DNA from: a virus | Virus record (IMG/VR): IMGVR_UViG_3300018432_000013 | Coordinates: 32,001-96,000 of that record | Length of the DNA stretch: 64,000 nucleotides | Strand: one strand, 5' to 3' | Shown here: positions 32,862 through 46,383 of the stretch, one piece after another | Numbering within the stretch: the first letter of the stretch is position 1 | Layout: every line of letters starts with the position of its first letter | Made by a program: the position numbers and the translations under genes | The notes under the pieces: generated by a model | What the model was told of the DNA's origin: nothing | Databases searched by the model: none | The model's input: only the letters and a program-made list of their open reading frames with translations

Positions 32862-33427
32862 CAGAGCTCCTCAAGGTTATGCACGTCCTGAAACAGCAGC
32901 GTGACGTCAATCTGTGCGCCCAACCCGAGCGTGATGGTGGCTTCGCGCAGCGAAGCGTGCCCCCACCCAACCTCCGTGCGCCAAAAGCGCTCGAACAAAC
33001 CGTGCCGCGGGTCGACGAGCAGGTACTCCGCGAGAGACGGGATGGACTTGTAGTGTTCGAACTTCTCGCCCCGGTCGTAGTCCTCCGTGCTTGGGCTCAG
33101 CACCTCGGCGATCAGCACCGGGTTGAGCACCGTGTTGGTGGCCTTCGGGTGATACTCGACAGGCGCACAAACCACGGTCACATCCGGATACGTGATGAGC
33201 CCGCTCGGCGTCGCGATGCGCAGGTCTGAAGTGTGCGCGCCGCACCGCTTGCCACGAAGCTGCGGACCGAGCTGCGTAATCAGGGCTGCTGCGCCTGCCG
33301 CGTGCTCACGCGTTCCGCCCGTCATCGCGTAGACGGTGCCGTAGAGCCACTCGTGCTTTTCACGGCTCTGCTCCTCGAAGGCGATGTATTCGTCCAGCGT
33401 GAATCGCGTGTGTGCGGGCGTGAGCAT
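32861..33427 (-). CDS. Uma2 (DUF820) family endonuclease
   Basis: FTLDEY..HE..G..YAM.GGT.EH, TYPDVTVVC, EVLSPSTEDYDRGEKF. Confidence 0.9.
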   Translation of the reverse strand: MLTPAHTRFTLDEYIAFEEQSREKHEWLYGTVYAMTGGTREHAAGAAALITQLGPQLRGKRCGAHTSDLRIATPSGLITYPDVTVVCAPVEYHPKATNTVLNPVLIAEVLSPSTEDYDRGEKFEHYKSIPSLAEYLLVDPRHGLFERFWRTEVGWGHASLREATITLGLGAQIDVTLLFQDVHNLEEL

Positions 33428-33487
33428 CAGGACTCCTAACGTGGCTTGGTTTCTGCGAGGCGCCGGCAGGCGCCGAGGGTGGGGTGT

Positions 33488-33784
33488 TCAGGAGACCGCG
33501 CGCAGCGCATCGCGAATGAGCTTATCGAGTCGTACCGAAAGAGCGTCCGCGAGGGCAAGCGCATAGGGGAGGGTGGGGGTTGCACCGTTCTCGATGGCGC
33601 AGATTCCCTCCTTGCCGCGATAGCCGGAGCGCAGCGCGAGCTCCGCTTGGCTGAGCCCGAGCTCTAGCCGGCGCTCCTTCACCAGCTTGGCGAACGCCAG
33701 GGCGAAGTCCCGTCCAATCCGCGGAGGCGTCTTCTGGCCTGGTGGACGACCACGGCCACGCTTGCTTGCTGGGAGCTGGGGCAC
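33488..33784 (-). CDS. XRE-family HTH regulator with AT-hook-like N-terminus
   Basis: VKERRLELGLSQAELA...IENG..P....LADAL; KRGRGRP; GTG start 33784 inferred from GAGGT SD. Confidence 0.8.
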   Translation of the reverse strand: MPQLPASKRGRGRPPGQKTPPRIGRDFALAFAKLVKERRLELGLSQAELALRSGYRGKEGICAIENGATPTLPYALALADALSVRLDKLIRDALRAVS

Positions 33785-33836
33785 GGGGAGAGCGACCTCT
33801 GGGGAGCGGGGAGCGGGGAAGTGGGGAGCGGGGGAG

Positions 33837-34049
33837 TCAGGCAGGCGGAAGCGCTGCCTTCGCTTTGATGCATTCAGGGCACTTGTGGCGATAACCGAAC
33901 ACCTGATTGCCGTACGTGCGCCACCCCTCTGCTTTTGCACGCTCTAGTGCAATCGCGGGCGTCTCACTGTCGTACGCCGCCGCGAACATGCAGCGCGGAC
34001 TGAAGGCGTCACATCGCACCTCGAACACCTCGCATGTCTTGACGCTCAT
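33837..34049 (-). CDS. Small Zn-binding protein
   Basis: CD....C and GW...HKCPEC; SD GAGGAG. Confidence 0.6.
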   Translation of the reverse strand: MSVKTCEVFEVRCDAFSPRCMFAAAYDSETPAIALERAKAEGWRTYGNQVFGYRHKCPECIKAKAALPPA

Positions 34050-34554
34050 AGGAACAGCTCCTCAAGGGACCGCTGCTTATCCGATAGCACAAGAGCTGCA
34101 GATTTTTCTAACAAAAGTGCAGCCCTTATTTTTTGATACAGGTGATAGCAAATTTTGCGTAGACAGGCGCTGGGGTGGGCCCCCTACGGGGGCCTCAGCG
34201 GCCCCGAAAACGAGGGCGAGATGTAGGTGGAGGGGGTTGCCTACCTGTGCGCGGCCCCCCGCACACACGCTGCCTACACCCTCTCTGTGTCCCGCCTCGC
34301 TCGTTTCCGATTCCCCATACTGTAAAGATACGCGTTAGCGTCCCTCGCGTCAAGCATGCGCACGCTGGCGCCCCTGCTTTTCTCGCTCGCCTGACTCTGC
34401 TTTGCGTGTCTCACGTCTAAGTTATCGGCCACGTGGCGCGAGACTTGAGAGAGAAAGAGCAGGGCCCTGCTCTTTCGTATCACGCAAAGGGCGCTTGCCT
34501 CCCGTGCTTTTCTCGTATCTACTAAGAACACCTCAGACACGGGAGCACGAAACC

Positions 34555-35079
34555 ATGGATCTAATCTCGACCACATTCGCACTTCTCTCATTGGCCAGCC
34601 TAGCCGTTTATACCCTGGCCTGTACATGGGCCCTATTCGCGACCTTCCCGCTAGCTGAGACGCTGGCTGTGGCGCAAGAGAAGGCATTCCGCGGTAGCGC
34701 CTCCCGTAGCCTGCTCGCTCCCGTGCCTGCTCTTCTCTCGGTTGGCCCCCATTCTGAGAAAAGAGCAGATCCGATTGCCGCGCTAGCGCGGCAATCGAGC
34801 CTTGCCGCGCTAGCGGCGCTGGCTCCCAAGTGCGAGCGCCCTAGCGCCCGCACTTCTCTCGGCCTCAGGATGCGCCGCCCACTGTCGGCGCGCCTTCCCG
34901 CATGGCTGGCCGATGATTCGGCCAGCGCCTCAGAGCCAGCCGAACGGGTTATCACCATGGGCCCATGCGTCGCATTGCTCGTTCCGCTTTCTCTTTCTCA
35001 GAGGGGCGCTCAGACTCTGAAAAGCAGCCACGGGAAGCGCCGCAGATCGGCACCTGCAATGCTGAGGCTCGCAGCGTAA
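34555..35079 (+). CDS. Hypothetical membrane-anchored protein, first gene of the array
   Basis: Shared leader ACGGGAGCAC before the ATG; hydrophobic N-terminus. Confidence 0.45.
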   Translation: MDLISTTFALLSLASLAVYTLACTWALFATFPLAETLAVAQEKAFRGSASRSLLAPVPALLSVGPHSEKRADPIAALARQSSLAALAALAPKCERPSARTSLGLRMRRPLSARLPAWLADDSASASEPAERVITMGPCVALLVPLSLSQRGAQTLKSSHGKRRRSAPAMLRLAA

Positions 35080-35575
35080 GCAGATACGAGAAAGCGAACC
35101 TACGCAGCCTTGACGTGCAAACGTCAAGGCTTTCACGCGTTTATGGTGGAAAGGTCGGCGCGGAGAAAGCGGCCCGCAAGGGCTGCGGTGTAGCTCGGCT
35201 GGCGCCTCGCATGGGAAGCACGCCAGCCAAAGTGCGAAAAAGCGTGTGATTTCGCTAGGCGGAATCGTGCGCTCGGGAAGCGCCAGCGTGCAACGCTCGG
35301 GAAGGCCGGGATAGCCGGGCAGTCGCACGGGTAGCCGGTCGGCGCTTGCCAGGCTTGCGAGCCTGAGAAGGTCGGGAAGGCATCGGATAGGTGGTCGGCG
35401 CTTGCATAGCTCGGGAGGCGGTAGCGTGGCGCATGGGAGGCGCTAGCTAAGCTTGCCCGGGTAACCTTGGCTCCCATACCGCTAGCGCTAGCCGGGCCCC
35501 TCTTTTGAGCCACGGGAAGCGCCAGCGCCTTCCCGAGCGGCTGAAAGAGAAAAGCACCGATCGCTCTTTTTCGAT

Positions 35576-35602
35576 TCAAGTTAGGCGCGGCAGTGCCGAT
35601 AA
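35576..35602 (+). promoter_or_regulatory. Sigma28/FliA-type promoter 1
   Basis: TCAAGTTA-N11-GCCGATAA. Confidence 0.75.
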
Positions 35603-35635
35603 CTAGGGCAGCAGCCCAGCAAAGGAATTCCGAAC

Positions 35636-35830
35636 ATGAAGCGCCGCAATCGGATTGTTTCGTTCCTGCCCACCAGCAGCAGGCATTGTTTTTACCTCGC
35701 AGCTACCGGCAGACTCACTCAACTTCGCTTAGAGGCTCAACTGTTTACGTCGAAAGAGGCACACGAGGCGCAGGCCAGCAGCAAAGATAGATACGGGCCC
35801 GGGCAATGGGGCATCGAGGCCGTTGGCTGA
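35636..35830 (+). CDS. Small array gene
   Basis: 64 aa between repeat units, SD AAGGA. Confidence 0.6.
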   Translation: MKRRNRIVSFLPTSSRHCFYLAATGRLTQLRLEAQLFTSKEAHEAQASSKDRYGPGQWGIEAVG

Positions 35831-35857
35831 AATCGAACGGACCTACTCTTTTTCGAT

Positions 35858-35884
35858 TCAAGTTAAGCGCGGCAGTGCCGATAA
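35858..35884 (+). promoter_or_regulatory. Sigma28/FliA-type promoter 2 (probably leaderless)
   Basis: TCAAGTTA-N11-GCCGATAA, 7 nt before the ATG. Confidence 0.75.
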
Positions 35885-35891
35885 CTAGGGC

Positions 35892-36107
35892 ATGAGCCGA
35901 ATGGAACAGATTGATGCGCGATGGGAACTCATGAGCGACGCGATTCGCGCGCTTCGCAGCTTGGGCGTCTCGCTCGAAACGCGCGAACGCCTCAGCAAGC
36001 TCCTCGATGCCGCTTGGACGCATGAGCGGACACTCGAGTGCGACCGGCTAGTCCGCGCCAGCACCGACAAAGGCGCGCGCGAGATGGTCGCCCGCTGGAT
36101 CGGCTGA
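35892..36107 (+). CDS. Small array gene
   Basis: 71 aa filling the space between repeats. Confidence 0.65.
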   Translation: MSRMEQIDARWELMSDAIRALRSLGVSLETRERLSKLLDAAWTHERTLECDRLVRASTDKGAREMVARWIG

Positions 36108-36134
36108 AATCGAACGGGCCCGCTCTTTTTCGAT

Positions 36135-36161
36135 TCAAGTTAGGCGCGGCAGTGCCGATAA
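36135..36161 (+). promoter_or_regulatory. Sigma28/FliA-type promoter 3
   Basis: TCAAGTTA-N11-GCCGATAA. Confidence 0.75.
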
Positions 36162-36202
36162 TACTTATGAGGCGCACGCAAGCGCCTCACGGGAGCACGA
36201 CA

Positions 36203-36625
36203 ATGGTTACCACGCTTGAAAAGATCGCGGCGCTTGAAACACTCGAGCAACTTCACGCCAGCGGTACGGCTCCCATCTCGCAAGATGCCTTGACGGATCT
36301 GATCAATGGCATCCGTGGCGAGCTGCATGCCGCAGAAGAGCGCGCCGGATACGATGCCGCGCAATCTGAGCTTGCCGCGTTTCAAGCGGCTCACATCTAC
36401 ATGAGCCGCGGTCTCAAATATGCGGCCGATTGCGCTTGCTGCGGCGCACACATTGCGCGCGCGCTGAAATACTCGGGAGGCCTCCCGGCGTACTGGCGCA
36501 AGTCAGACAAAGCGATCGTTTGCGTCGATTGCTACAGCGCCAGCGAGTTGAGCCAGCGGGCCGTTGCGTACGGCTGGGCGAGCAAGCTTGACGGGAGCCG
36601 CATCTTGCGCGATTGCGAGAAATAA
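36203..36625 (+). CDS. Array gene with Zn-finger (CACC...CVDC)
   Basis: Shared leader; start MVTTLEK. Confidence 0.7.
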   Translation: MVTTLEKIAALETLEQLHASGTAPISQDALTDLINGIRGELHAAEERAGYDAAQSELAAFQAAHIYMSRGLKYAADCACCGAHIARALKYSGGLPAYWRKSDKAIVCVDCYSASELSQRAVAYGWASKLDGSRILRDCEK

Positions 36626-36647
36626 CCGGGCCCGCTCTTTTTTCGAT

Positions 36648-36674
36648 TCAAGTTAGCGCGGCAAGCGCCGATAA
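36648..36674 (+). promoter_or_regulatory. Sigma28/FliA-type promoter 4
   Basis: TCAAGTTA-N11-GCCGATAA. Confidence 0.75.
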
Positions 36675-36717
36675 CAATGGTGAGGCGCAAGCAAGCGCCC
36701 GAACGGGAGCACGGGAA

Positions 36718-36888
36718 ATGACTTTTGACGAGTGCGACGGCGCCACGGTTACGCGGAAGCAAGCTCTCCGGGAGATCAAGCGCCACGCTTACAAGGCGCT
36801 TGACGAAATGATTGCCGAGTTCGACGCCGAGGTAGGCGTGTGTGAGCAATACGATGCCATGGCTGTCTTGATCTGGCTTGGCTACTGA
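36718..36888 (+). CDS. Small acidic array gene
   Basis: Shared leader; MTFDEC...YDAMAVLIWLGY. Confidence 0.7.
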   Translation: MTFDECDGATVTRKQALREIKRHAYKALDEMIAEFDAEVGVCEQYDAMAVLIWLGY

Positions 36889-37059
36889 CATGCGCCGATT
36901 CGTTGCCGAAACCATCGCGGCAATCGGCTGGATCCGCTTTCACGTGGCGCACTTAGCCGCATACAAGCGCCAGCGCCGCAACAGAGACTTGCGCGGATCG
37001 CGTTAGTCGTATCTAATAATCAAAGGTCGCAATCGAGCGACCGAACGGGAGCACGGAAC

Positions 37060-37317
37060 ATGCAGCATAAGCACGAAGTACGTTTGGTGTGCGGCAATCG
37101 CTACGATGCCGGTTTCACGGTTGTTTATAGCAAGCGCGTCCGCTCTGAGGCATGCGCACTGCGGATTGCTCGCAAGCTTCGCGACCGCCATTGCGAGGAA
37201 ACCCGAAGCGGCCGCAAGTGTCGCGATTTTGTCGAAGTGGCGAATCGCGGTAGTGGTGAATGCCTGACGTTGGACGCAAACCTAGTCCCGAGTGTGGGCG
37301 AGCTCGGTTACTGGTGA
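37060..37317 (+). CDS. Small array gene
   Basis: Shared leader, 85 aa. Confidence 0.65.
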   Translation: MQHKHEVRLVCGNRYDAGFTVVYSKRVRSEACALRIARKLRDRHCEETRSGRKCRDFVEVANRGSGECLTLDANLVPSVGELGYW

Positions 37318-37403
37318 TAGCGGCGCCTGCTGGCGCTGGTCTCGCGTAAGCGCGTTTGCCTCGCAAGCGCCTTTACTCGAGTCAAGCAACGGGAGCACGG
37401 AAC

Positions 37404-37880
37404 ATGGCCAAACAAACGAAAATCGAATCTCACGAGCTTACCGCCCCTGCAAGTTGGGCAAGCTACTTGATCAATGGCGATGCCTCAGGATTCGATTACT
37501 ACAATACGCCCAACGATGCCGCAGGCGATCGCGATCGGGAGGCTTGCGAAGCATGGATTGCGGCGCTTGCGGCCAATAACGCGCACGTAGTGAGCGCCAA
37601 TGGTGAGCCGTTTTTCGCGCGCTATTGCGATGCCGATCGGGTAGTTTCCGGATTGCTTGCGGGCGACATGCTCACTTACCAGATCTTGCGGCATGCGCCG
37701 ATCTACTACTCGCTGTCTATCCCGCACTCGAGCACTCCCACGGAATGGCATCCAACCGAAGCAACGGGCCCGTTTGCCGTGCTTAGTCGCGGTGCATTTG
37801 CCACGGAAGCGGAAGCCCACGAATGGGCCCGCACTCATCTTGCGGGCCAGCCGTATAGCGTCCGGGAGTTTGCCGGCTAA
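37404..37880 (+). CDS. Array gene (WASYLINGD.SG phage family)
   Basis: Shared leader; P..WAS.LINGD.SG motif recalled from phage small-gene regions. Confidence 0.7.
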   Translation: MAKQTKIESHELTAPASWASYLINGDASGFDYYNTPNDAAGDRDREACEAWIAALAANNAHVVSANGEPFFARYCDADRVVSGLLAGDMLTYQILRHAPIYYSLSIPHSSTPTEWHPTEATGPFAVLSRGAFATEAEAHEWARTHLAGQPYSVREFAG

Positions 37881-37980
37881 TCTCTCGCGTATCGCGAAAG
37901 AGTGTTGACCGGGCCCGGCTATCTCGTATCTAATAATCTCATAGGCGCGCAAGTGAGCGAGCCGAACGGGAGCACGGGAA

Positions 37981-38178
37981 ATGGCCAGCCGCAAAATTGA
38001 GACTCTGATCGTGGAAACGCTAGCCGCACTTGAAATCGAACGCATGATCGCGGAAGCGATTGCGGAAGCGACGATCGGCGCCGCTATCGCGGAATGTCTA
38101 GCCCTCACCGATTTCGATTGCGAGCGCTCTTATGTGGGCCCGATCGTGGCTTGCTCAGATATCGCACTTGCCGCATAA
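37981..38178 (+). CDS. Small Ala/Glu/Ile-rich array gene
   Basis: Shared leader, 65 aa. Confidence 0.55.
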   Translation: MASRKIETLIVETLAALEIERMIAEAIAEATIGAAIAECLALTDFDCERSYVGPIVACSDIALAA

Positions 38179-38187
38179 AGAAACCGC

Positions 38188-38214
38188 TAAAGCGATACGC
38201 GATAGTGCCGATAA
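38188..38214 (+). promoter_or_regulatory. Sigma28/FliA-type promoter 5
   Basis: TAAA-N15-GCCGATAA, the enterobacterial consensus, with flanks unrelated to the other copies. Confidence 0.75.
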
Positions 38215-38258
38215 CTAAGTGTGAGGCGCAAGCAAGCGCCCGAACGGGAGCACGCAAC

Positions 38259-38699
38259 ATGGCAACGAAGTACAAGCTAGTCTCTGGTGATGTGTCCGGC
38301 GCGCCCGCACTGTATGCGGCGCGAATCGACGAAACCACGTTCGCGGTTTACGAGATCAATGAATGGGAGGATCTCGATTCCTCCGCGGTCGAGACTCACG
38401 GGAAATACAACGTTCAGGCGGGAATCGTCGATGTGCGCGGTTTCGACAGCCACACACAGATTCCCGGCTATTTTTCGGATAGCGTGCGGAGCGCGCTGCA
38501 ATCGTGCGGCTGGGAAATCGACGGCAGCGGCAATATCTGGTGTCCTTACAGTGGTGACATTGTCGTCCAAGCTGGCTCGCCCGCATTCGAACTGTGTCTA
38601 GTCGAATGCCTGTGGCAGTACGGGGCAAAAGATGTTGCGGCCGATGTGTCCGGCGATAACTTGCGCAAGCTCGTGCGGGAAGCGCGCGCGGCAGTCTGA
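38259..38699 (+). CDS. Acidic array gene
   Basis: Shared leader; start MATKYKL. Confidence 0.7.
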   Translation: MATKYKLVSGDVSGAPALYAARIDETTFAVYEINEWEDLDSSAVETHGKYNVQAGIVDVRGFDSHTQIPGYFSDSVRSALQSCGWEIDGSGNIWCPYSGDIVVQAGSPAFELCLVECLWQYGAKDVAADVSGDNLRKLVREARAAV

Positions 38700-38757
38700 T
38701 ACCGGCTAGTGGCGCTAGCGCCTTTACTTGAATCGAACGGGCCCGCTCTTTTTCGAT

Positions 38758-38785
38758 TCAAGTAAGCGCGGCAAGCGGACGATAA
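38758..38785 (+). promoter_or_regulatory. Sigma28/FliA-type promoter 6 (variant, within 14-bp inverted repeat)
   Basis: TCAAGTAA-N12-GACGATAA. Confidence 0.6.
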
Positions 38786-38828
38786 CAATGGTGAGGCGCA
38801 AGCAAGCGCCCGAACGGGAGCACGCAAC

Positions 38829-39293
38829 ATGGCAACGATTACGTGGAACATGGGCAGCAACGTGGAAGCGGTCTCAATCAAAACGGCTAGCGCGCTCGAA
38901 ATCGCGATCGCAACCATCGTTGCAGAGCACGCCGATAGCTACCCGGACACGGGAGCCGTTGGATTCCTTAAGGATCTCGCGTACGGCGGTTGCGAGTCCG
39001 GCATGGTGGGCGAGCTTGTCTACTACCGCGATACGTGCGCCTTTTATGAGACACATCGGCGCGAGATCGCCACGCTATTGAGCGAGATGCTTGCCGATGT
39101 AGGCGCAGACTCACCTCAAGGCCTGTTCGGTGAAAAGTGGGATCGCGAAGATCCGCTCGCATTGGAGGAAACGAATCAAAACTTGCTTGCGTGGTTCGCT
39201 TGCGAGGAAACGGCGCGCCGGTTGACGCAACTTGCGCGTGAGAGCTTGCCGGATGCGAGCGCTGGCGCGCGCGCGCTTGAAACACTCCTCTAG
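38829..39293 (+). CDS. Acidic helical array protein, possible DNA mimic / anti-restriction protein
   Basis: FLKDLAYGGCESGMVGELVYYRDT..FY...NLLAWFACEE; acidic; function is inference. Confidence 0.55.
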   Translation: MATITWNMGSNVEAVSIKTASALEIAIATIVAEHADSYPDTGAVGFLKDLAYGGCESGMVGELVYYRDTCAFYETHRREIATLLSEMLADVGADSPQGLFGEKWDREDPLALEETNQNLLAWFACEETARRLTQLARESLPDASAGARALETLL

Positions 39294-39299
39294 TCGCTA

Positions 39300-39860
39300 C
39301 TTGCTCCCGTGGCGCAGCGAATCGGGCCCGCACTCTGCAAAACGAGTGCGGGCCCGATTCGCGTTTGCGGTTCGTTTGCGGCCGCTGGCGCTGGCTCCCG
39401 TGGCAACGCTGGCTCCCGTGCTCCCGTGGCGGCGCTGGCTTCCCGAGCGGCGCTGGCGCTGGCTTGCCGTGCTCCCGTGCTCCCGAGCGGCGCTGGCGCT
39501 GACCTTGCTCCCGTGGCGTGCTCCCGAGCGGCGCTGGCTTGCCGTGGCGCTGGCTTGCCGTGCTTCCCGAACGGCGCTGGCGTTCAAACTAGCCTCCCAT
39601 GCGCCTCGGGAAGGCGCGCCAGCGCCAGCGGCTAGCCGGACATAGCCGCACGCTACGCTGGCGCCGCTTGCGAGCAGCTAGCGCGCTTCCCGTGCTTCCC
39701 GTGCTTCCCGTGGCGCTGGCTCCCGTGCTCCCATGCTCCCGTGCGGCGCTGGCTCCCGTGGCTGGCTCCCGTGGCTGGCTCCCGTGGCTGGCTCCCGTGG
39801 CGCTGGCGCTGGCACTGGCTTGCCGTGTTCCCGAGCGGCGCTGGCTTCCCGTGGCATTGC
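39300..39860. repeat. Low-complexity tract of GCTCCCGTG / GCTGGC repeats
   Basis: 12 exact GCTCCCGTG plus variants; 13-bp unit GGCTCCCGTGGCT about x4 at 39751-39800. Confidence 0.9.
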
Positions 39861-39890
39861 CGCGACTTGCGAGAATCTTTCTTTTTCGAT

Positions 39891-39918
39891 TCAAGTAAAC
39901 GCGGCAAGCGGCCGATAA
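39891..39918 (+). promoter_or_regulatory. Sigma28/FliA-type promoter 7
   Basis: TCAAGTAA-N12-GCCGATAA. Confidence 0.65.
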
Positions 39919-39961
39919 CTTAGGTGAGGCCAGCGAGACGCTAGCCGGATGCGGAAAAAGA

Positions 39962-39996
39962 TTGACGGCAAACGAGCAGACCGGCTAATCTGATAC
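39962..39996 (+). promoter_or_regulatory. Sigma70-like promoter overlapped by TAATCTGATAC operator-like site
   Basis: TTGACG-N18-TAATCT. Confidence 0.55.
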
Positions 39997-40012
39997 TAGA
40001 AAGAGCGAGCAG

Positions 40013-40195
40013 ATGAAAAAGCCAACCAAGTATGTGTACGAATACATCGTACAGGGCCACTACGGTCAGGGATGGGAAGACCTGACCGCGCACGACACGC
40101 GCAAAGCGGCACGCGACGAGCGGCGCGTGTACGCGGCAAACGAGCCGGGCCCGCATCGGGTCATCTTCAGGCGCTCTCTCCGGCACACGGTTTGA
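40013..40195 (+). CDS. Small array gene (YG.GWE family)
   Basis: VQGHYGQGWEDL...Y..NE. Confidence 0.7.
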   Translation: MKKPTKYVYEYIVQGHYGQGWEDLTAHDTRKAARDERRVYAANEPGPHRVIFRRSLRHTV

Positions 40196-40316
40196 GCACA
40201 CGGGATCTCGCACACGGGATCTGCACACGGGTTGAGCCCTGCACACGAGCACACGGTCTCGCGCACACGGCTCAGAACGCGAGCACGCGGTCTGACAGCA
40301 CACGGGAGCACGAATC

Positions 40317-40628
40317 ATGGCAATGAACGCTGACATCGAACACGCGCGCACACGGCTTCTCGCGGTCCTCTCGGAGGGCTCAAAAGTCTACTGCGTACTT
40401 CGCACACGGTCTAAGTCGGGAATGTCGCGCACGGTGTCTTTCTTCACCTACCACGACGGGCACATGGTTTGGCTTGACGGCTACATGCACACGGTTTGCG
40501 GCTTCGCCCGCAAAGGCGATTCGCTGGTCATCAAGGGTGTTGGGCAGGACGCGGGGTTGCACGCGGTTTCGACGCTAGCCGCGAAGCTCTTCGGCCGCTC
40601 CGATGCGCTAGGCCACGAGTGGCTCTGA
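40317..40628 (+). CDS. Array gene (G..VY..LR..S.SGMSR phage family)
   Basis: Shared leader; motif recalled from uncharacterised phage proteins ending in WL. Confidence 0.75.
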   Translation: MAMNADIEHARTRLLAVLSEGSKVYCVLRTRSKSGMSRTVSFFTYHDGHMVWLDGYMHTVCGFARKGDSLVIKGVGQDAGLHAVSTLAAKLFGRSDALGHEWL

Positions 40629-40736
40629 ACTGAACATGCACGCGGGATCGCGCGCTGAGGTTCTCTCGCAATCCGCACACGGGATCGCGCTCGAATCTGA
40701 GCACACGGGCTCAACTTTCACGGGAGCACACGGCAC

Positions 40737-41000
40737 ATGGAAAAACATTACAGCTACGGTTCAGGCTCAACGGGCTGCATGTACGATTCAGGCCCGCACA
40801 CGGCTTCGACTCTCGAAGACGCAATCGAAGGCGCGCTGTGTATCTTCGACGACCTTAGCGACGGCGCGCTCGCTTGTGCACGCGCGGATCTACTCGCACA
40901 CGGGATCCACTACTTCCCTGAACTAGTACGCGGATACGCTGGCGCCGATTACGTCGAAGTGGTCGAGCAAGCCGGTCCCTGCCCTGAGTCCGACGACTGA
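40737..41000 (+). CDS. Small acidic array gene
   Basis: Shared leader, 87 aa, G..GCMYD. Confidence 0.7.
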   Translation: MEKHYSYGSGSTGCMYDSGPHTASTLEDAIEGALCIFDDLSDGALACARADLLAHGIHYFPELVRGYAGADYVEVVEQAGPCPESDD

Positions 41001-43575: not shown

Positions 43576-43866
43576 ATGCCAACGCCCACCCCCATCAAGC
43601 TCACGCTCGTACGCGCAGGCCTCGAAGCCATCGAGCGGCACGTAGAGAAGATTCCCTATCACGCAAACCTCATCCGCTCCGACCTCGAAGCGAGCTACCT
43701 GGAGCGCGAGCGCGCGCTCTTCATCTCGCAGCAGTGCGTCAGCATCCGCGATGCGCTCGCGAGCGCTCTGCGCGCAATCAACGCGATCGACAAGGACGCG
43801 CAGCAATACCTTGCCGAGACCGATCCGAACCCTTCATCTCACGCCCGACTCCCGAATAAAGATTGA
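43576..43866 (+). CDS. Hypothetical protein
   Basis: 96 aa, SD AAGGA. Confidence 0.6.
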   Translation: MPTPTPIKLTLVRAGLEAIERHVEKIPYHANLIRSDLEASYLERERALFISQQCVSIRDALASALRAINAIDKDAQQYLAETDPNPSSHARLPNKD

Positions 43867-43897: not shown

Positions 43898-44119
43898 ATG
43901 GCTACCGTCCACAAGATCAGCATCTCGCTCGGCTCTGAAGACCTCGAATGGGCACGCAAAAAGGCCGAAGAAACTGCGAGTAGTGTCTCCGCAGTGATGA
44001 GCGGCGCACTGCGCCGGGAGCAACAACACGAAGCGCGACTAAAGCTTCTCGAGTGGCTCGGTACGGACGACATCACCGAAGCAGACCGTGAAGCCATACG
44101 CCTAGAACTACGCTCGTGA
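43898..44119 (+). CDS. RHH-type antitoxin (VapB-like)
   Basis: KISISL...A......SVSA....ALR; GTGA overlap with the PIN gene. Confidence 0.75.
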   Translation: MATVHKISISLGSEDLEWARKKAEETASSVSAVMSGALRREQQHEARLKLLEWLGTDDITEADREAIRLELRS

Positions 44120-44493
44120 CACGCGGCATTACGTTCGACACGGGCGCACTGATCGCGCTTGAACGCCGCCAAAAACGCATGCGCAGCATCGTGACTGAAG
44201 CCACCCTTCAAGGTCTCACGATCACCATTCCAGCTCCTGTGCTCACCGAGTGGTGGCGCAAACCAAGCGCAGCCCAGACGAATATTCTCCGCGCGTTCGA
44301 GGTGGAGCCGCTCACAGAACGCCTCGCAAAGCTCGCTGGTGAGGCCATCGAAAGCGTCGCACACGCAACACCCATCGACGCCATCGTGATGGCCAGCGCA
44401 GCATCACGAGGAGACATCGTGTTCACGAGCGACTTCGACGATCTTGATCGCTTGCGCGCCTATTTTCCCAACGTCCGAGTCTTACGCACATGA
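44116..44493 (+). CDS. vapC: PIN-domain toxin (VapC-like)
   Basis: FDTGALIA, VLTE, DAIV, TSD.DD acidic PIN residues. Confidence 0.85.
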   Translation: MTRGITFDTGALIALERRQKRMRSIVTEATLQGLTITIPAPVLTEWWRKPSAAQTNILRAFEVEPLTERLAKLAGEAIESVAHATPIDAIVMASAASRGDIVFTSDFDDLDRLRAYFPNVRVLRT

Positions 44494-45265: not shown

Positions 45266-45348
45266 GCCACCACCCTGAGCAGCGCGATAGTGCTCAAGCT
45301 CCACCCGCTCTTATCCGATACTAAGAAGTAAGAGGTCCCCGAAGTCCA

Positions 45349-46383
45349 ATGTTCAGCCCCCGCAAGTTCCTGATCGCCGCCGCCCTGATCGCTTCCGCCT
45401 GCGCAGACGCCGAGTCGCCTGAGATGGTCGACCTCATGCCTGAGGACGACGCCGCCGCCGCCGAACAGGACGGGGCCGTCACCGACGAGGACGGCGGCGC
45501 GGCGCCCACGCAGGGCGACGCGCAAGGAAACGACGCGGACGTGGCACAGGGCGACAGTGGATCCGAAGCGGATCCATCGAGCGATGCTGGATCCGCTTCG
45601 GATCCGACAAGCGATGCCGGGACCTCCGACGGGTCGAGCTCGCAGGATGCCGAGACCGACGCCTCCAGCCCGCGCGACGCAGGGCAGATCGTCGACGCCA
45701 GCGCGCACGACGCGGACGATGCGGCTGCGGCTGCGCGCGTAGACGGGTCCGCGGGCCCACTGACGCCGGACGCCAGCACGCCTGACGCCTCCAGCCCGGT
45801 CCACACGCCCGACGCCAGCGAGCCACCCGCCTGCCTTGCAGGCTGCCTCTCCGCGTTCACGGCAAGCGAGCCGAGCCCAAGCGAGCCTCTCTACGATCCG
45901 AATGCAACCGGCCAGGCGCGCTTTCTCGGCATCGAGCGCGCGATCGACCTCGGGCGCATCACGGCACCAAACGGCACGGTGCGCATCTCGGCGCACGCGG
46001 ACAGCTACCAGGATTCGGACTGGTTCAAGTTCAAGATTGACAGCGTTTACCGCTACTTCGACTTCTTCTGGGGCACGCGCACGGGCGCCCACGTCACACG
46101 CCAGTTCTACATCTCCTGCGCGCCTGAAGCCGCAGGGTGCGCGCCCATGCAGACCTCCGTGATGCTGTTCGGTAAAGAGGCGTGCTCGCTTTACAACTCT
46201 ACAGCCCCAGCGGAAGAGTTCGGTGAATACGCCTACTGCGAGGATCCCACGGTCTACATCCGCGTGGTCAGCTTCGCGGACGCGCCTGCGTCGTATACGA
46301 TCAACCTCGACATTCGCCCCCTCGCCAACCCGCGCAACATCAACACGCGCGATTACCCCCAGCGAAATGGCTACGTACCCTGA
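45349..46383 (+). CDS. Lipoprotein with Asp/Ala/Gly-rich linker and C-terminal beta domain
   Basis: Lipobox-like IASAC; DAG/DAS repeats; DSDWFKF pre-peptidase-C-like motif. Confidence 0.75.
   Translation: MFSPRKFLIAAALIASACADAESPEMVDLMPEDDAAAAEQDGAVTDEDGGAAPTQGDAQGNDADVAQGDSGSEADPSSDAGSASDPTSDAGTSDGSSSQDAETDASSPRDAGQIVDASAHDADDAAAAARVDGSAGPLTPDASTPDASSPVHTPDASEPPACLAGCLSAFTASEPSPSEPLYDPNATGQARFLGIERAIDLGRITAPNGTVRISAHADSYQDSDWFKFKIDSVYRYFDFFWGTRTGAHVTRQFYISCAPEAAGCAPMQTSVMLFGKEACSLYNSTAPAEEFGEYAYCEDPTVYIRVVSFADAPASYTINLDIRPLANPRNINTRDYPQRNGYVP

Follow-up and report, generated by a model that had tools for sequence, protein, structure and literature searches.

Textbook phage programmes start on the primary sigma factor of the host and then proceed on factors made by the phage. 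In T4-type phages, promoter-stem-loop (PeSL) cassettes with sigma-70 early promoters mediate the modular shuffling of early genes, and in phages of the phiEco32 type the later promoters are reportedly of a single-box kind. PhiEco32 and phage 7-11 reportedly transcribe their early genes with host sigma-70 and their later genes with a phage-encoded sigma (PMC8948821). Here we describe a stretch of 64,000 nucleotides (the window; bases 32001-96000 of the 112,926-bp virus record IMGVR_UViG_3300018432_000013, which has terminal repeats and is rated complete), in which a block of small genes carries promoter-like sites of the sigma-28 (FliA/WhiG) class, and we weigh which sigma factor would read them. 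Sigma-28-family factors can serve development instead of flagella, as do WhiG of Streptomyces and sigma-28 of Chlamydia.

A cluster of sigma-28-type sites in a small-gene region

We scanned the whole genome for T[A/C]AAG-N14/15-GCCGATAA, tolerating mismatches and using block shuffles as the control, and found seven perfect sites (0.0 expected) and one site with a single mismatch (0.23 expected). All eight sites, named P-1 and P1 to P7 in Table 1, fall in one 5.5-kb stretch (window 34422-39918), are intergenic and are oriented toward the next open reading frame (ORF). The -35 box reads TCAAG in seven sites and TAAAG in one, the -10 box is an exact GCCGATAA in seven and GACGATAA in one, and T[A/C]AAG is separated from GCCGATAA by 14 nt in six of the sites and by 15 nt in the other two. 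Exact GCCGATAA octamers occur seven times in the genome, every one inside these sites. Sites with two mismatches are present genome-wide at the level of chance (5 against 4.6 expected), and the one at 45294 is therefore only a candidate.

The minus strand carries the virion genes (portal, terminase, protease and tail) as far as about 26 kb into the window, and the plus strand, from about 50 kb, carries genes for a primase-like protein, DNA polymerase A and helicases of the DnaB-like and SF2 kinds. Between the two blocks are about 20 kb of small genes, mostly orphans. Comparison with Pfam and PHROGs assigned no function to the cassette proteins; the only matches were to DUF7222 and to one PHROG of unknown function.

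Six plus-strand sites (35576, 35858, 36135, 36648, 38758 and 39891) conform to TCAAGTWA-N11/12-GMCGATAA, for which 100 dinucleotide shuffles gave an expectation of 0. A preliminary description of this DNA had listed these six, all exactly where we find them and all on the plus strand, and a TAAA-type site, which we located at 38188-38214 as TAAAG-N14-GCCGATAA. Its seven sites are thus real, but the total is eight, the minus-strand site 34448->34422 having been overlooked. The six are paralogous copies of one 45-60-nt module (...CTCTTTTTCGAT-TCAAGT...), so that the eight sites have about three independent origins: the module, 38188 and 34448(-). Sites 38188 and 34448(-) have only the two boxes and the spacing in common with the module copies, which is the best internal evidence of selection on the boxes themselves. 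The preliminary description had made the same argument from the unrelated flanks of the TAAA-type site, and 34448(-), likewise unrelated to the module, adds a second case.

The repeats might instead act mainly in recombination, as boundaries of cassettes, or sequester host sigma-28 as decoys, with little role in expression. Six sites do lie within a repeated module at gene-cassette junctions, the 20-kb small-gene region is absent from a relative of the phage (G002, described below), as for a shuffled accessory region, and a sigma factor in short supply could be captured by the eight consensus sites on every genome copy. Recombination, however, leaves unexplained the two sites that consist of boxes only, the strict orientation and the fixed distance to the 5' stem-loop and start codon, and both roles are compatible with real promoter activity and additive to it. 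We consider it very improbable that boundaries or decoys are the main role of the repeats.

The sites match verified FliA promoters

The published sigma-28 consensus is TAAAGTTT-N11-GCCGATAA, and the geometry of the phage sites, T[A/C]AAG followed by 14 or 15 nt and GCCGATAA, is that of this consensus (PMC2859248). E. coli FliA promoters verified by chromatin immunoprecipitation sequencing include those of flgKL (TCAAGTCCGGCGGGTCGCTGCCGATAAT, that is TCAAGT-N13-GCCGATAA), fliL (TCAAG...GCCGATAAG), fliC (TAAAG...GACGATAAC), tar (TAAAGTTT...GCCGATAAC) and flgMN, and each of the variants seen in the phage (TCAAGT, TAAAG, GACGATAAC and the trailing C) recurs among the verified promoters (PMC4183435). 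The features that define the class, a -35 TAAAG(TTT) with C tolerated at position 2, a -10 GCCGATAA made up of an extended GC and the core CGATAA, and a spacing of 14 +/- 1, are all found in the phage. A Pseudomonas-type TCAAG consensus is not printed in PMC5300878, and for TCAAG we take E. coli flgKL and fliL as the reference. Judged by their sequence, the sites are full members of the sigma-28 promoter class, and the earlier assignment to this class is well supported by the boxes, the 14-15-nt spacing and the E. coli FliA counterparts. We regard the eight sites as very probably working promoters.

The likeness to the class 3 flagellar promoters that FliA reads in E. coli and Salmonella is close: both have the same -35 core, T[A/C]AAG, the same gap of 14-15 nt before GCCGATAA and, frequently, the same trailing C, the layout of E. 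coli flgKL is that of P1-P4 and P-1, and E. coli fliC shares GACGATAAC with P6. Unlike class 3 promoters, the phage sites precede small orphan genes and not motility genes, and they are clustered, eight in 5.5 kb, and nearer to the consensus than most cellular examples.

Could the sites be weak promoters of the host primary sigma, with TTCAAG-N17-GATAAC as -35 and -10 boxes and perhaps with the help of a phage factor, the sigma-28 likeness being incidental? In the module copies GATAAC has four of the six positions of TATAAT and TTCAAG three of the six of TTGACA, at a 17-nt spacing, and identical cassette designs nearby appear to be driven by looser sigma-70-like sites. Against this, the independent sites lose the TT of the -35 box (CTAAAG, CTCAAG) and keep T[A/C]AAG and GCCGATAA exactly, the conserved GC ahead of CGATAA has no role in a sigma-70 reading, and the better sigma-70-type sites of the phage (TTGACG-N17/18-TAnnnT) look quite unlike them. 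Furthermore, a strict sigma-70 scan (TTGACA-N16-18-TATAAT, at least 9 of 12 positions with A2 and T6 of the -10 box) calls none of the eight. Reading by the primary sigma is, in our judgement, very improbable.

Predicted transcripts and neighbouring signals

Each site is predicted to head a single short transcription unit made up of small accessory genes, most of them orphans. Transcripts would start about 7 nt past GCCGATAA, in P3-P6 at the base of a protective 5' stem-loop and in P2 at the start codon; the P2 mRNA is probably leaderless because its ATG lies 7 nt beyond the -10 box. In five units a 5' stem-loop begins 8-9 nt downstream of the -10 box, and a shared ribosome-binding stretch, ACGGGAGCACG, remains unpaired beside these stem-loops. 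We infer promoter activity and start sites, as well as the pairing of sigma factors with promoter classes and the host, from the DNA, and early timing of the block is suggested by its position only.

Preceded by TTGCGC or TTGACC at a distance of 17-18 nt, the element CTCGTATCTAATAAT can be read as a sigma-70-like promoter of a looser kind, and at 37010 and 37927 such elements head the same design of 5' stem-loop and ribosome-binding stretch with a different stem sequence. The hairpin directly upstream of P-1 resembles a terminator or an insulator (Table 1). A terminator upstream within the module was considered and rejected, as the hairpin there reaches about -5 kcal/mol and is no better than in shuffles. 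P-1 faces a long leader, then a 70-aa ORF and then the gene of an XRE-type helix-turn-helix (HTH) regulator. The leader (window 34050-34420, minus strand) measures about 280-370 nt from the minus promoters (34448 and 34353) to the first ORF (34049), contains GC-rich hairpins and could be a regulatory RNA ahead of the XRE gene. No Rfam family was found in window 33000-41000.

Two non-coding arrays in inverted orientation, at 35000-35540 (+) and 39380-39860 (+), lie on either side of the P1-P6 cassette block. In both, C(A/T)CGGGA(A/G)GCGCCAGCG and its reverse complement recur many times, and the core of the array is similar to the shared ribosome-binding stretch or its complement. Elsewhere in the small-gene region, window 44116-44493 (+) encodes a PIN-domain protein (E 1.3e-8), probably a nuclease of the toxin-antitoxin type, with a looser sigma-70-like site upstream at 43863.

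The phage sigma factor and a second promoter-like class

The phage has a sigma factor of its own, P0002 (Table 1). A word-seeded search of 5.8 billion proteins with P0002 returned P0002 only, and an exhaustive HMMER search returned 14 relatives, the best of which (P0003 and P0004) are 41-43% identical to it. Sigma70_r2 was matched by nine of the 11 aligned family members, with P0002 itself at only 14.8 bits. The best NCBIfam matches of P0002 were RpoE and sigma70-ECF (extracytoplasmic function) with E values of about 6e-4, below the cut-offs, and a profile comparison with solved structures ranked AlgU and RpoE best (AlgU E 1e-3, weak). Its AlphaFold model (predicted local distance difference test score, pLDDT, of 81) has sigma-2 and sigma-4 domains linked by a long helix and a disordered linker, without a sigma-3 domain. 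Searched with Foldseek, the model placed ECF sigmas first (AlgU, SigH and SigE; AlgU E 2e-3, weak), sigma-28/FlgM 46th and WhiG 48th; the list also includes the sigma-28-family structures 6pfv and 9wsf.

The FliA/WhiG family TIGR02479 is built on sigma-2, sigma-3 and sigma-4 and has a cut-off of 189.6 bits. P0002 had no match to FliA_WhiG by hmmscan at E <= 1, and a six-frame search of the phage genome gave none at E <= 10. Together the comparisons, consistent in direction and every one of them weak, hint at an ECF-like phage sigma. The preliminary description had called its region 2 FliA-like, a view that our comparisons do not support: ECF sigmas rank first, and a FliA_WhiG match and a sigma-3 domain are both lacking.

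A second, promoter-like class is represented by the single box GGGCACYAAC. Its 18 copies are correctly stranded, precede genes for replication and for the virion and in most cases stand 6-9 nt from the start codon. The only relative that a portal search of IMG/VR brought up, G002, is a 116,020-bp contig with syntenic structural and replication modules; its terminase large subunit (TerL), portal and sigma are 59%, 58% and 27% identical to those of the phage. G002 has a counterpart box, (G/C)GTGCACTAA, about 16 times in the same leaderless geometry. Its whole genome holds only three CCGATAA and no sigma-28-type cluster; it has no counterpart of the 20-kb small-gene region, and its small-gene slot instead has TTGACA and the near-palindrome GTTAC(R)CGCTAAC. 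The single-box class thus accompanies the sigma family and the sigma-28-type cluster is peculiar to this phage, so that by elimination the cluster would fall to a host factor. The genes behind GGGCACYAAC probably form the regulon of the phage sigma and would have leaderless mRNAs; the apparently ECF-like sigma would then read this separate class ahead of the replication and virion genes.

Wider searches were negative: a megablast of the region against cultured phages, a search of IMG/VR with the phage sigma and a metagenome scan with the sigma alignment found nothing, and tblastn with TerL gave only about 22% identity. L005 (112,874 bp, motif present once) was rejected as a relative, having no TerL match and one CCGATAA. 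The 24 single matches of a motif scan of IMG/VR were chance-like, and the 39 single matches of a metagenome scan with the module signature were attributed to chance. As a separate observation, TerL of G002 (G002:C1:24548-27076, L027) gives two separate matches, some 1 kb from each other, inside a single open frame of 906 aa, which suggests an intein or other in-frame insertion.

Alternatively, the phage's own, apparently ECF-like sigma would read the sigma-28-type sites, the cassette genes would be middle genes that come on once this sigma has been made, and the sigma-28 likeness would reflect a two-box plan common to sigmas of groups 3 and 4. A protein of the sigma family is indeed encoded by the phage, as the Sigma70_r2 matches and the two domains of the model indicate; sigmas with these two domains normally need both a -35 and a -10 box, which are present in the eight sites and absent from GGGCACYAAC; and FliA_WhiG is matched by four of the 11 members of the alignment, the more distant ones. 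However, P0002 itself has no FliA match and its fold neighbours are ECF sigmas, G002 keeps the sigma family and the GCACTAA single-box class without sigma-28-type sites, and the 18 GGGCACYAAC boxes before replication and virion genes would be left without a reader. Moreover, phiEco32-like phages offer a precedent for a phage sigma acting on promoters that are reportedly single-box. We judge reading by the phage sigma to be unlikely, if deserving of serious weight.

The host side: sigma-28 in the Myxococcota

Portal homologues with 47-53% identity are present in 120 contigs of the species-genome set, labelled overwhelmingly as Myxococcus, Corallococcus, Archangium, Polyangiaceae, Kofleriaceae and 'Deltaproteobacteria'. 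Two genomes, G006 (a 7.3-Mb contig; C5:35500-79700) and G007 (a Polyangiaceae metagenome-assembled genome; C23:124000-177000), carry a syntenic prophage that matches 25-27 structural proteins of the phage at 25-58% identity; prophages of this type, which share the virion module, are widespread in the Myxococcota. Tetranucleotide usage of the phage is nearest to that of G006 and G007 (r 0.85, 61-62% GC) and, among high-GC genomes, farthest from that of Corallococcus (r 0.65-0.69), weak evidence that agrees with the rest. The host is probably a member of the Myxococcota. A search of 401 genomes sampled from this phylum did not find the phage-type sigma.

FliA scores above its cut-off in G006 and G007, on the same contigs as the prophages, and flagellin genes are present. 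FliA_WhiG is above cut-off in 168 of 301 genomes sampled from the phylum of G007; across the 301, the strict motif shows a modest excess (206 matches, compared with a hand tally of about 113 for the reversed control). Upstream of the two flagellin genes of G006 we found cTCAAG(G/C)-N14-GTCGA, and upstream of a flagellin gene of G409 TTAAG-N15-GCCGAACA. Flagellar genes have been reported in uncultured Myxococcota (preprint 10.1101/2021.07.06.451402).

In several FliA-positive genomes of the candidate phylum a perfect T[A/C]AAG-N15-GCCGATAA lies 60-130 nt upstream of pilB, the type IV pilus ATPase gene (MshEN plus T2SSE). Perfect pilB sites are present in four genomes of the sample other than G006, G007 and G409, and seven of the ten genomes checked gave no flagellin match. 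A sigma-28-family factor may control pili in the genomes with such sites.

A host sigma-28-family factor as the favoured reader

From these comparisons we lean towards the view that the sites are read by host core RNA polymerase with the host's own sigma-28-family factor. The preliminary description had offered three readings, namely a tie to a host motility or developmental sigma, titration of that sigma, and reading by the phage sigma, and the first is the best supported, given an apparently ECF-like phage sigma, a relative that shares the sigma and not the sites, and FliA in part of the Myxococcota.

Several observations weigh against a host sigma-28 factor as the reader. Six of the eight sites are copies of one module. 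The placement of the host reaches phylum level only, and in that phylum Myxococcus and Corallococcus have no true FliA (115 bits against the cut-off of 189.6) and no strict motif. The flagellin -10 box of G006 is GTCGA rather than GCCGATAA. Sigma-28-type sites are missing from the related prophages of the FliA-positive G006 and G007 (120 kb in each), which implies that the wiring is specific to this phage and not a trait of the lineage. The assignment of GGGCACYAAC to the phage sigma is an elimination argument from one distant relative. Finally, ECF promoters follow a similar two-box plan (a -35 box, about 16 nt and then a CGT- or CGA-type -10), which weakens the elimination argument for a host factor.

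A more elaborate proposal, which we hold to be doubtful, is that the accessory block is deliberately tied to the motility state of the host. In the host phylum the sigma-28-family factor would drive flagellin and, in some lineages, pilB, and a phage that enters via such an appendage would always meet active sigma-28, a second entry into transcription independent of sigma-70. The sites might also drain sigma-28, shut the appendage and block superinfection.

Table 1. Sites, signals and genes discussed in the text (window coordinates unless a genome is named)
Feature	Position	Strand	Description
P-1	34422..34448	-	TCAAGTCTCGCGCCACGTGGCCGATAA; TCAAG-N14-GCCGATAA; spacer and flanks unrelated to module
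P1 (module copy)	35576..35602	+	TCAAG-N14-GCCGATAA; ahead of 64-aa ORF 35636-35830
P2 (module copy)	35858..35884	+	ATG of ORF 35892-36107 starts 7 nt past -10 box
P3 (module copy)	36135..36161	+	ahead of ORF 36203-36625
P4 (module copy, variant spacer)	36648..36674	+	ahead of ORFs 36718-36888 and 36890-37006
P5	38188..38214	+	TAAAG-N14-GCCGATAA; flanks and spacer unrelated to module; ahead of ORF 38259-38699
P6	38758..38785	+	TCAAG-N15-GACGATAA; -10 variant same as E. coli fliC; ahead of ORF 38829-39293 (DUF7222)
P7	39891..39918	+	TCAAG-N15-GCCGATAA; ahead of ORF 40013-40195 and genes beyond
Candidate weak ninth site	45294..45321	+	TCAAG-N15-TCCGATAC, two mismatches; intergenic, about 27 nt upstream of 344-aa orphan ORF 45349-46383
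5' stem-loop behind P3	36168..36189	+	GAGGCGC...GCGCCUC, -15.8 kcal/mol; starts 8 nt after -10 box
Equivalent 5' stem-loops behind P4-P6	36681-36701, 38222-38242, 38792-38812	+
Stem-loop of different sequence	37025-37042	+	GGUCGC/GCGACC; behind sigma-70-like site
CTCGTATCTAATAAT element	37010..37020	+	further copy at 37927, variant at 34516
Looser sigma-70-like site	39962-39991	+	TTGACG-N18-TAATCT; about 70 nt downstream of P7, ahead of ORF 40013-40195
Sigma-70-type promoter	34325..34353	-	TTGACG-N17-TATCTT; about 95 nt downstream of P-1, same strand; only strict-scan call in region
Strong hairpin	34453..34476	-	10-bp stem, GGCC loop, -15.7 kcal/mol, z -2.9, then U-rich tract; abuts P-1 -35 box upstream
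Intrinsic-terminator-like hairpin	39343..39367	+	closes P1-P6 cassette block
XRE-type HTH regulator gene	33488..33940	-	HTH_3, E 1.5e-8; downstream of P-1 and sigma-70-type minus promoter
Phage sigma P0002, 213 aa	49360..50001	+	only detectable sigma of the phage; divergent, apparently ECF-like, sigma-2 and sigma-4
GGGCACYAAC copies in window	4104, 6232, 8601, 23168, 26145, 27007, 27954, 48469, 55048, 56720, 60653, 60827		others genome-wide
pilB-promoter loci (among L177-L182)	G175:C3:33300-35000; G185:C54:3150-4900; G090:C24:33300-34950; G046:C185:1-1500; others

Discussion

We found no paper that describes sigma-28-type promoter arrays in phages. If the favoured reading is true, a gene block started on the motility sigma of the host would link infection to host state, motile or piliated as against sessile. 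The sites would also be a natural set of sigma-28-specific promoters, stronger than cellular ones and usable as orthogonal parts, and they would add to the roles known for sigma-28 in a phylum that has classically been regarded as lacking flagella.

WhiG of Streptomyces and sigma-28 of Chlamydia show that a factor of this family and its promoters can act outside flagellar regulation, to which the sites before pilB in the candidate host phylum may be compared. Both are cellular regulons, and use by a phage is not described for them.

As in the PeSL cassettes of T4-type phages, a repeated promoter-bearing module lies between single small genes, in a hypervariable region that is missing from the nearest relative. 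Unlike in those cassettes, the upstream hairpin of the module is weak and the promoter is of the sigma-28 type.

The likeness to phiEco32 and 7-11 lies in a divergent phage sigma, a single-box class (here GGGCACYAAC) before replication and virion genes, and host-type promoters confined to the small-gene region. The present phage differs from them in that its host-type promoters are mostly of the sigma-28 class and not of the sigma-70 class, and in that its sigma appears ECF-like and is unrelated to theirs in sequence.

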